A stretch of DNA of 64,000 nt, taken from an uncultured Bacteroidales bacterium (GTDB taxonomy: Bacteria > Bacteroidota > Bacteroidia > Bacteroidales > WCHB1-69). Where the stretch lies: the NCBI GenBank assembly GCA_900319925.1, contig ONQE01000005.1:16373-80372 (forward strand). Direction: 5' to 3'. Both the position numbers and the translations under genes were made by a program. Under the pieces are notes generated by a model. That model had not been told where the DNA came from, made no database searches, and was given only the letters and a program-made list of their open reading frames with translations. The stretch's first letter is position 1, and the number at the start of each line of letters is the position of its first letter. Shown in pieces: positions 59,543 through 60,604 of this stretch.

Positions 59543-60604
59543 ATGAACATACTAGTCACCGGCGGAGCTGGGTTCATCGGCTCCCACACCCTCATCGAAC
59601 TATACCACGCCGGACACACCGCCGTGGTCATCGACAACCTCAGCAACAGCAACCCCGTCGCCCTGCGCCGCGCAGCGGAGCTCATCGGTGTGCCAGAAAT
59701 CCCCTTCCACCAAATTGACATCCGCGACCGCCAAGCCCTCGAACAACTCTTCGCCCACCACACCTTCGACGCCTGCATCCACTTCGCCGGACTCAAAGCC
59801 GTCGGCGAGAGCGTCGCCAAACCCTGGGAATACTACGAAAACAACATCGGCGGCACCCTCACCCTCCTCGACGTCATGCGCCACCACCACTGCAAGAACA
59901 TCATCTTCAGCTCCAGCGCCACCGTCTATGGCGACCCCGCCGAGATCCCCATCACCGAAAACTGCCCCAAAGGCACCTGCACCAACCCCTACGGCTGGAC
60001 CAAGAGCATGCTCGAACAGGTCCTCATGGACATCCAGAAGGCCGACCCCGAATGGAACGTCGTCCTCCTGAGATACTTCAACCCCGTCGGCGCGCACCCC
60101 AGCGGTAGGATAGGGGAGAACCCCAACGGCATCCCCAACAACCTGATGCCCTACATCACCCAGGTGGCCGTCGGCAAACGCCCCGAGCTGGGCGTCTTCG
60201 GCGACGACTACGACACCCCCGACGGCACCGGCGTCCGCGACTACATCCACGTCTGCGACCTCGCCGCCGCCCACGTCGCCGCCCTCCAATGCTTCACAGC
60301 TCACAGCTCACAAATCACAGCTCACAGCTCACAAATCACAAATCACAAATCACTAATATACAATATTGGAACGGGTCATGGGTATAGCGTCTTGGATATG
60401 GTGAACGCTTTCACTCGCGTGAACGGTGTCTCCGTCCCCTACCGCATCCAGCCCCGTCGTGCCGGCGACATCGCCACCTGCTACTGCGACCCCGCCAAGG
60501 CGAAAGCCGAGTTGGGCTGGGAGGCGAAGTACGGCATCGACGAGATGGTCCGCGACAGCTGGAACTGGCAGCGCCAAAACCCCGAGGGCTATCCCGAGCC
60601 TTGA
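59543..60604 (+). CDS. galE: UDP-glucose 4-epimerase carrying an in-frame heptamer-array insertion
   Basis: Motifs GGAGFIGSH, SSSATVYG and YGWTKSMLEQ (YxxxK). ...HVAALQCF-[TAHSSQITAHSSQITNHKS]-LIYNIGTGHGYSV. Confidence 0.85.
   Translation: MNILVTGGAGFIGSHTLIELYHAGHTAVVIDNLSNSNPVALRRAAELIGVPEIPFHQIDIRDRQALEQLFAHHTFDACIHFAGLKAVGESVAKPWEYYENNIGGTLTLLDVMRHHHCKNIIFSSSATVYGDPAEIPITENCPKGTCTNPYGWTKSMLEQVLMDIQKADPEWNVVLLRYFNPVGAHPSGRIGENPNGIPNNLMPYITQVAVGKRPELGVFGDDYDTPDGTGVRDYIHVCDLAAAHVAALQCFTAHSSQITAHSSQITNHKSLIYNIGTGHGYSVLDMVNAFTRVNGVSVPYRIQPRRAGDIATCYCDPAKAKAELGWEAKYGIDEMVRDSWNWQRQNPEGYPEP
60294..60356 (+). repeat. H1 array inside the galE CDS (TCACAGC/TCACAAA/TCACTAA, 9 units = 63 bp = 21 codons)
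   Basis: Reads tcacagctcacagctcacaaatcacagctcacagctcacaaatcacaaatcacaaatcactaa. It is in the stop-free orientation. Confidence 0.95.

Follow-up and report, generated by a model that had tools for sequence, protein, structure and literature searches.

In known contingency genes, many strains carry OFF alleles, and the repeat tracts are long and perfect. Phase variation in Bacteroidales typically proceeds via invertible promoters, and to our knowledge no case based on SSRs has been described in this order. Heptanucleotide tracts inside open reading frames are known from Haemophilus influenzae, namely (AATTTTG)14 in hmw1A and (AACAACC)8-13 in a homologue of HI1369, and frameshifted strains are exemplified (PMC2651432). 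Another group of related elements consists of heptamer arrays that are distributed over whole genomes. These are the TAACTGA repeats of Beggiatoaceae, cyanobacteria, and five Bacteroidetes (MacGregor 2015, PMC4679880), the cyanobacterial STRR and the G-rich heptamers of Xanthomonas and Nostoc (PMC4692102), and the long SSRs of Mrazek et al. 2007, as far as these are summarised in PMC4679880 and PMC4692102. In those genomes the arrays are mostly intergenic, and the rare cases within ORFs are located at protein ends or in hypothetical proteins (PMC4679880, PMC4692102). Heptamer arrays in gut or rumen Bacteroidales or in GalE were not found described in the literature searched.

The array analysed here is located in galE of a gut or rumen Bacteroidales bacterium. 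A stretch of 64,000 nucleotides, referred to as the window, was examined as a whole. The gene hosting the repeat is:

59543..60604, + strand: galE (UDP-glucose 4-epimerase), an uninterrupted ORF of 353 codons according to the ORF list

By every sequence test the product is a bona fide GalE, for which epimerase activity is predicted. It reaches 442.7 bits with TIGR01179 over residues 2-349, above the curated equivalog cut-off of 262.3, and its top match in the PDB is 6k0i (E 1.9e-127). The motifs GGAGFIG at residue 7, SSSATVYG at 123, and YGWTK at 150, representing NAD binding and the catalytic Ser/Tyr/Lys, are present and remain unchanged across 47 homologues. Upstream of galE, Wza-like, Wzc-like, CpsB/CapC, and rfbB genes are found, confirming that the gene adjoins a capsule-export operon, as a first-pass annotation of this DNA had claimed. 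On the 3' side, gene content varies by strain, with either an amidase gene or a gene for a 125-aa protein. Rfam families were detected nowhere in the window.

The same annotation had described nine heptamer units, 63 bp, in frame within the epimerase gene, and this description, including the flanks, turned out to be correct in every particular. The following elements were distinguished:

60272..60295, + strand: left flank, codons HVAALQCF, the end of a near-identical upstream block; its DNA is constant in all same-species alleles except for one T/C site
60294..60356, + strand: in-frame heptamer tract of nine units, the last one degenerate, specifying residues 252-270, TAHSSQITAHSSQITNHKS (TRF, unit listing)
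60294..60335, + strand: two perfect 21-nt super-units TCACAGC-TCACAGC-TCACAAA, seven codons each (TRF, unit listing)
60350..60356, + strand: terminal degenerate unit TCACTAA, with a TAA that is now out of frame and becomes an immediate stop if one unit is lost (out-of-frame translations)

The tract starts at the second base of codon 251. Its units are arranged as two TCACAGC, one TCACAAA, two TCACAGC, three TCACAAA, and the final TCACTAA, and the encoded peptide is flanked by HVAALQCF on the N-terminal and by LIYNIGTG on the C-terminal side. TRF detected a period of 7 as well as a period of 21 (2.6 copies of 21 nt, 93% matches, score 94). The longest perfect period-7 run in galE comprises 18 nt, while such runs averaged 5.1 nt in 2000 shuffles and never exceeded 11. 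GC content is 41% in the tract versus 62% in the remainder of the gene. Matches to promoter or terminator consensus sequences around the tract were not in excess over shuffles, and the RNA fold predicted for the tract with its flanks was unremarkable (z = -1.7). The frameshift arithmetic put forward in the first-pass annotation is sound, since out-of-frame translations stop at or just past the tract: removal of one unit from the window allele leads directly into the TAA, and addition of one unit leads to a stop after 10 codons.

In the best PDB alignment, a gap of 14 residues faces the tract. The canonical form of this loop was taken from 80 galE genes of other species, obtained by a tblastn contig scan whose ranking favours canonical forms and which therefore provides a loop reference, not an allele count. 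It is a nine-residue segment of the I[GE]R[KR]CG[ILV][AG]I type that leads from the helix to the YN[IL]G strand. The earlier proposal, based on a short loop of about 8-12 aa, that the array replaces and expands a short loop agrees with the roughly nine canonical residues and with the PDB gap. The 120 closest GalE homologues (78-96% identity) vary in length from 337 to 432 residues, and nearly all of the difference resides at the tract loop. Compared to the canonical 337-residue form, the loop is expanded in 139 of 147 full-length relatives. Inserts measure 12 to about 90 residues with no favoured value, and their peptides display 7-residue periods belonging to several families (SQITNHK/TAHSSQL, PSTLNLK, SQDSRFK, RLKTEDL, TRHTSHV, and others). 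In three other species, loop arrays were seen in the DNA: eight perfect copies of TCACACG; GTCTCAA/TCAAGAT; and the 8-mer AACCTATC in 17 copies together with TCACAGG and ACCAATC. The unit families concerned are found again between the genes of these genomes. When the protein collection was searched with (SQITNHK)6, only 12 short spurious ORFs were obtained and no domain-bearing proteins.

An AF2 model of the window GalE, calculated with 47 close homologues, had a mean pLDDT of 64, and even conserved core segments fell below 50. As this model is poor, it is the alignment gap and the variability in length that suggest an exposed and probably disordered loop. An NJ tree of the 147 homologues, considered for a single origin of the expanded loop, contained canonical-loop sequences interspersed among the others; it is unreliable because of so much recombination and was set aside. 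A second GalE loop, near residue 50, carries repeat-like inserts in eight homologues. Nearly every species of the clade has an array in the GalE loop and some have one in the second loop, a distribution for which pure neutrality is not an obvious predictor.

Among the alleles compared, galE DNA upstream of the tract is 98.3-98.9% identical, and the array variants are therefore alleles of one species. Two types were recognized, based on TCACAAA and on CCTTAAA. All TCACAAA-type alleles end in TCACTAA; with G for TCACAGC and A for TCACAAA, the units preceding this end are:

Window allele: GGAGGAAA, 9 units in total
L107 allele: GGAGAAAA, 9 units in total
L090 allele: GGGGGAAA, 9 units in total
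L098 allele: GGAGGGGGAAA, 12 units in total
L087 allele: GGGGA, 6 units in total
L095 allele: four G and one TCACAGA, 6 units in total
L083 allele: 17 units, 18 units in total

Without exception, the totals are multiples of three (6, 9, 12, and 18, with 9 occurring in three unit orders). CCTTAAA-type alleles number at least eight, and in their arrays CCCTCAA at every third unit removes the in-frame TAA and creates a 21-nt period. The 90%-identity cluster containing the window protein includes TCACAAA-type loops of 12, 19, 26, and 40 residues alongside CCTTAAA-type loops of 18-33. The TCACAAA family is used in galE in the sense orientation, the only one free of stops, and as read from the sequences, TAACTRC arrays, which have stops on both strands, never occur in GalE loops. 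Protein and tract identical to those of the window were found on at least four contigs from independent assemblies. As in contingency loci, the length of the tract is polymorphic among close strains; as in in-frame coding VNTRs, the differences between alleles are either multiples of 21 nt or replacements that stay in frame. A tract of the same length in all strains, an outcome that would have spoken against a switch, was thus not observed, and the prediction that 21-bp steps preserve the frame describes precisely those changes that are seen between strains.

To sample loci without regard to the integrity of galE, three anchors were used: the exact left-flank pattern (6 metagenome contigs), the amidase neighbour (6 places from 10 contigs), and the neighbouring PDDEXK (GxxExxY) protein (7 places from 19 contigs), so that about 33 contigs are represented. 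In none of these 19 frame-unbiased loci, and in none of about 15 distinct alleles of this species, was the tract out of frame; these are consensus contigs, in which a minority of OFF cells is invisible. A comparison of strains by unit number modulo 3, as suggested before, consequently places all same-species alleles in frame. Two intergenic arrays, located between the amidase gene and its neighbour, served as internal controls:

61052..61169, - strand: intergenic array of the galE-tract family, TCACAAG/TCACAAA (TGACTTG), upstream of the amidase gene; 9-39 units, no multiple-of-three rule
61197..61261, + strand: intergenic TAACTRC array, the second internal control; 5, 7, 8, or 9 units in the same strains

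In L087 and L088, galE is identical and the intergenic arrays are two units apart. Changes of one or two units are therefore frequent in the organism and specifically missing from galE. The dN/dS ratio is 0.06-0.12 for the 76 codons after the tract and 0.03-0.10 for the 155 codons before it. Downstream of the tract, galE is under strong purifying selection, like its upstream part, and the similarity of the values on both sides implies that the C-terminal domain is read in frame throughout. Taken together (0.03-0.12), these ratios also lend indirect support to the predicted epimerase activity of the loop-expanded protein.

Heptamer arrays are abundant around galE. The window contains 21 of them, amounting to 2.5% of the DNA, with TCACAAA, TAACCCT/CCTTAAA, and TAACTRC as main families. 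Apart from the galE tract, the arrays lie between genes or extend into genes by no more than a few codons at either end, and several border directly on a start or stop codon. Among about 45 genes in the window, galE is the only one with an internal array, and in the related-species loci that were inspected, no gene other than galE was seen to contain one either. One array of the galE family precedes a gene of the same locus:

57542..57606, + strand: intergenic TCACAAA array just upstream of the rfbB start

TCACAAA dimers occur 20 times elsewhere in the window. Both galE array types of this species are also represented there as intergenic families, and the respective galE unit family is intergenic as well in L103 (TCAAGAT) and L105 (TCACAGG). 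Tandem TCACAGC, in contrast, is confined to galE, a hint that the encoded peptide may be under selection. Arrays number 3.3-5.8 per 10 kb near array-bearing galE genes and 0.6-1.0 near those with a stable 14-residue or a canonical loop; L005 breaks this correlation, having a canonical loop yet many arrays. Many mainly intergenic arrays, with the galE family among them, are characteristic of genome-wide heptanucleotide long SSRs. The TAACTGA unit itself was not matched, the units being TAACTAC/TAACTGC in the window and TCACAAA/TCACAGC in galE.

Immediately after the tract, the sequences of the strains diverge. The window carries one of two haplotypes at this position:

60357..60440, + strand: 3' flank haplotype 'hapA', AT-rich, about 50% GC, at which synonymous divergence jumps (composition dip, alignment)

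The two haplotypes, an AT-rich one present in the window and a GC-rich one, extend over roughly 70 nt, and each of them is found together with either array type. The window and L083 are identical over the 454 nt preceding the tract and show 21 differences over the 248 nt that follow, starting 11 nt downstream of it. Correspondingly, dS is 0.01 upstream versus 0.35 downstream. The tract is a mosaic junction, most simply explained if exchange tracts end where the arrays are non-homologous.

From these analyses it appears probable that the tract reflects slipped-strand variation of heptamers in a permissive GalE loop, which is selected for frame and reshuffled by recombination. The tract would be a coding-region copy of the heptanucleotide arrays of this lineage, accommodated between the ...HVAALQCF helix and the IYNIG strand. 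We infer that slipped-strand mispairing continually adds and removes units. Changes by one or two units would cut about 83 residues off GalE, presumably resulting in a null enzyme, and would be purged, so that only net changes of 3n survive. Homologous recombination between strains would exchange arrays, and with exchange tracts ending at non-homologous arrays the tract would become a mosaic junction. The polar loop peptide may act as a linker that is probably disordered, tolerates changes in length, and takes no part in catalysis. According to this scheme galE would be kept ON, and the tract would have no regulatory function, being instead a hot spot of mutation and a polymorphic marker. Given length steps of three units only, it looks like a tolerated, fast-evolving loop repeat and not like a demonstrated on/off switch.

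The first-pass annotation had interpreted the tract as a phase-variable locus. As an adaptive contingency locus, galE would be turned OFF and ON by one-unit slips, altering galactose-containing capsule or LPS, for example to escape phages. The arithmetic of this idea holds, as nine units of 7 nt, not divisible by three, are inside the ORF and a gain or loss of one unit truncates GalE, and the tract is hypermutable compared to its flanks. Slippage by single units is demonstrable in the intergenic arrays of the organism, galE is part of a capsule locus, and a perfect tract of eight TCACACG units occupies the same loop in a related species. The mixture of ON and OFF alleles that defines contingency loci, which are usually OFF in a substantial proportion of strains, was however not encountered in this species; the absence of out-of-frame tracts from the unbiased loci and alleles of this species, as well as the purifying selection 3' of the tract, argues against a switch, although OFF cells in the minority would escape notice in consensus assemblies. 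Nor is the tract long, near-perfect, and near the 5' end of the ORF, as in typical contingency loci: it is interrupted, with perfect runs of just 2, 2, and 3.6 units, and begins 71% of the way into the ORF. CCTTAAA-type alleles follow a 21-nt period, which also disagrees with single-unit switching. On balance an adaptive switch is considered unlikely, even though heptanucleotide tracts inside ORFs were accepted as candidates in H. influenzae when frameshifted strains existed (PMC2651432).

One frameshifted allele, split at the loop repeat into P0172 and P0232, was detected in a related species and speaks in favour of the switch. In P0172 (299 residues), the loop reads ...SLEVSRS followed by IYLQYWHRPRLQ, which corresponds to IYNIGTGHGYSV read out of frame; P0223 is its in-frame equivalent. 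P0232 is an ORF of 69 residues starting from an internal Met, and the contig recorded for it has the same length as that of P0172, 35,860 nt. Judged from the proteins, loss of one 8-nt unit from GTCTCAAA-GTCTCGAG-GTCT would fit the back-translation. P0172 thus indicates that unit slippage can yield an OFF allele at the consensus level in this clade. It is about 1 in some 200 sequences, however, and this single case might be due to misassembly or represent a dead end. Among cluster representatives, no match was obtained for the 102-residue tail that a gain of one unit would produce out of frame in the GC-rich haplotype, a weak negative because frameshifted alleles, like P0172, sit inside clusters. 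Three further proteins, P0227, P0230, and P0231 (65-69 residues, from Met286), were rejected as frameshift alleles, since contigs broken at arrays give the same ORFs and canonical-loop clusters also hold fragments starting with Met. P0140 (249 aa), in which an array follows right after GTGVR, was likewise rejected as a tract frameshift and represents a deletion or a chimeric contig end. A broader version of the idea, in which the heptamer and octamer arrays are no passive products of slippage but form an actively propagating system that repeatedly overwrites two GalE loops with the unit family present in the genome at the time, creates recombination junctions in polysaccharide loci, and by single-unit slips turns galE OFF reversibly at low frequency, is given a similarly small chance.

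Slipped-strand variation under selection for frame also has to be weighed against a function at the DNA level, by which the tract would be a recombination junction or hot spot promoting cassette shuffling in the polysaccharide locus, with the 3' portion of galE exchanged along with the variable region that follows it, any coding effect being incidental. The switch in divergence exactly at the tract, the existence of all four combinations of array type and 3' haplotype, and the strain-dependent downstream genes are consistent with this. The same pattern, however, results from passive termination at non-homologous arrays. A recombinase, a specific site, or a conserved junction sequence is lacking, and loop arrays are also present where the neighbours of galE differ, making such an element very improbable.

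Selection could alternatively act on the loop itself, which might tune GalE activity, contribute to oligomer contacts or partner binding, or allow escape from a protein targeting GalE. The loop is occupied in the great majority of homologues and the second one is used in eight, a unit variant is specific for galE, and allelic diversity within the species is very high. On the other hand, GalE is cytoplasmic, the peptides are whatever the local heptamer family translates to, and none of the lengths is preferred. We give little credence to this explanation. An assembly or sequencing artefact, that is a collapsed or chimeric repeat misplaced in galE, is effectively ruled out, for although short-read assemblers break at such arrays and some contigs stop within the tract or close to it (L090/L097, P0140), the identical protein and tract were obtained in independent assemblies from different studies with different assemblers, 63 nt fit into a typical short read (a general figure), and every allele keeps the frame.

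The galE locus may be regarded as a natural experiment in which the mutation of a repeat can be told apart from the selection on it: in one set of strains, shared heptamer families change by single units where they are intergenic and are kept to steps of three units inside a conserved enzyme. Evidently, a single loop of a housekeeping enzyme can accommodate a translated microsatellite of 12 to about 90 residues, which is useful for engineering of GalE and SDR enzymes. The tract can be used to distinguish strains very finely in rumen and gut metagenomes, and it serves as a warning that such loci will be mis-handled by gene callers and assemblers. If an OFF state of low frequency were adaptive, it would constitute a new type of phase variation in the glycan biology of Bacteroidales; if galE were indeed reversibly turned OFF by single-unit slips, gut Bacteroidales would provide their first example of an SSR contingency switch, one that acts on a central enzyme of nucleotide-sugar metabolism.

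The components of the locus, heptanucleotide long SSRs, coding VNTRs, and the arithmetic of contingency loci, are already known. As far as the searched literature shows, their combination is new: a repeat with a unit other than 3n in the middle of a conserved cytoplasmic enzyme, present clade-wide, with turnover of families and with three-unit quantisation for which an intergenic control is available. With the SSR loci of Haemophilus, Neisseria, and Campylobacter, galE shares a non-3n unit within the ORF, lengths differing by strain, truncation upon a one-unit slip, and a link to glycans. Unlike these, its alleles are all ON at the consensus level in this species, the tract is interrupted and changes in three-unit steps, and the host gene encodes a conserved cytoplasmic enzyme. 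The resemblance to genome-wide heptanucleotide arrays extends to the presence of several 7-nt families, which are mostly intergenic, abut or overlap start and stop codons, and vary in unit number between relatives; in both, units containing TAA can only overlap the ends of ORFs. The TAACTAC/TAACTGC units of the window are one to two bases apart from the TAACTGA of MacGregor 2015, and the host, an uncultured gut or rumen Bacteroidales bacterium, is outside the scope of PMC4679880 and PMC4692102. Different from those arrays, the one in galE is located in the middle of a conserved enzyme domain, clade-wide, and turns over between families. Like in-frame coding VNTRs, it has an effective repeat of 21 nt, or 7 residues, whose in-frame copy number varies by strain. 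Unlike them, it is not part of a surface or cell-wall protein and its primary unit is 7 nt, so that the in-frame behaviour of galE is imposed by selection and not by unit length.

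Heptamer arrays were detected at 21 sites in the window, from 7299 to 61863, and could be assigned to three families. They occupy short intergenic regions, adjoining or even overlapping start and stop codons, and show no consistent orientation relative to the flanking genes. At 56681, the stop codon of a Wzc-like gene is the TAA of the array itself. Examples of these arrays, together with other repeats and a long ORF found in the window, are the following:

46058-46234, heptamer array
51163-51273, heptamer array
52939-53109, heptamer array
56681-56787, heptamer array
13280-13440, tandem repeat, three copies of 52 nt
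29594-29743, repeat, two copies of 71 nt
30216-45008, ORF of 4930 codons
63659-63997, cluster of short repeats at the end of the window, with TTTCGCCCC and TGCGAAAACAA

Upstream of galE, several features were apparent in addition to the arrays, and one more is located downstream of galE:

57609-58659, rfbB, dTDP-glucose 4,6-dehydratase gene
58741-58793 and 59451-59503, inverted repeats of 53 nt, 85% complementary, on either side of the GxxExxY gene
58918-59289, GxxExxY (PD-(D/E)XK_3) gene, between rfbB and galE
61170-61199, 30-nt spacer ATGCCATGACATCAACGATGAAGTGGGCAT, upstream of an amidase gene

In public gene calls, rfbB specifies 377 aa and is extended upstream (region 57526-57608) across the array at 57542-57606, as a TCACAAA array contains no stop codon in any of the three frames. 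The canonical start, MRNIIITGGAGFIG, is located at 57609; the upstream position is probably a start-site error that recurs systematically across these genomes. The reading frame of rfbB in the window is also shifted, as 83 nt are missing at 57921/57922. This deletion is absent from contig L001, which is otherwise 99.99-100% identical to the window, and the deleted segment was found in 10 other contigs of the same species. There are two possible readings, a pseudogene specific to this strain or an assembly variant.

The inverted repeats around the GxxExxY gene include (CACAGAAAT)3 and (ATTTCTGTG)3. Strains L083 and L085 lack the gene at this position between rfbB and galE, so that it resembles a cassette subject to presence/absence variation. 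The spacer ATGCCATGACATCAACGATGAAGTGGGCAT, a possible terminator or promoter element, has complementary ends, separates two hypervariable intergenic arrays and is conserved at the equivalent position in 10 strains.

Within the 64-kb window, tandem TCACAGC is restricted to galE (60294-60328), which suggests a separate history of the coding copy or selection at the peptide level. Dimers of TCACAAA occur 20 times elsewhere in the window, outside the galE tract.

In galE of related species, arrays of 8-nt units (period of 24 nt or eight residues) were also found, and the longest GalE loop comprises 89 residues in a protein of 432 aa. A second in-frame array site near residue 50, between ...VEEI and IPFY, is present in two contigs from related species:

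L102, 7784-7864
L105, 3320-3356

The only out-of-frame allele seen is the split galE specifying P0172 and P0232 on a 35,860-nt ENA contig from a related species. The frameshift lies within the loop repeat and would fit the loss of a single 8-nt unit.

The galE genes bearing arrays are situated in capsule-type loci. In the relatives L114 and L115, GalE has a stable 14-residue or canonical loop, and galE adjoins clpB, a housekeeping neighbourhood and not a polysaccharide locus.
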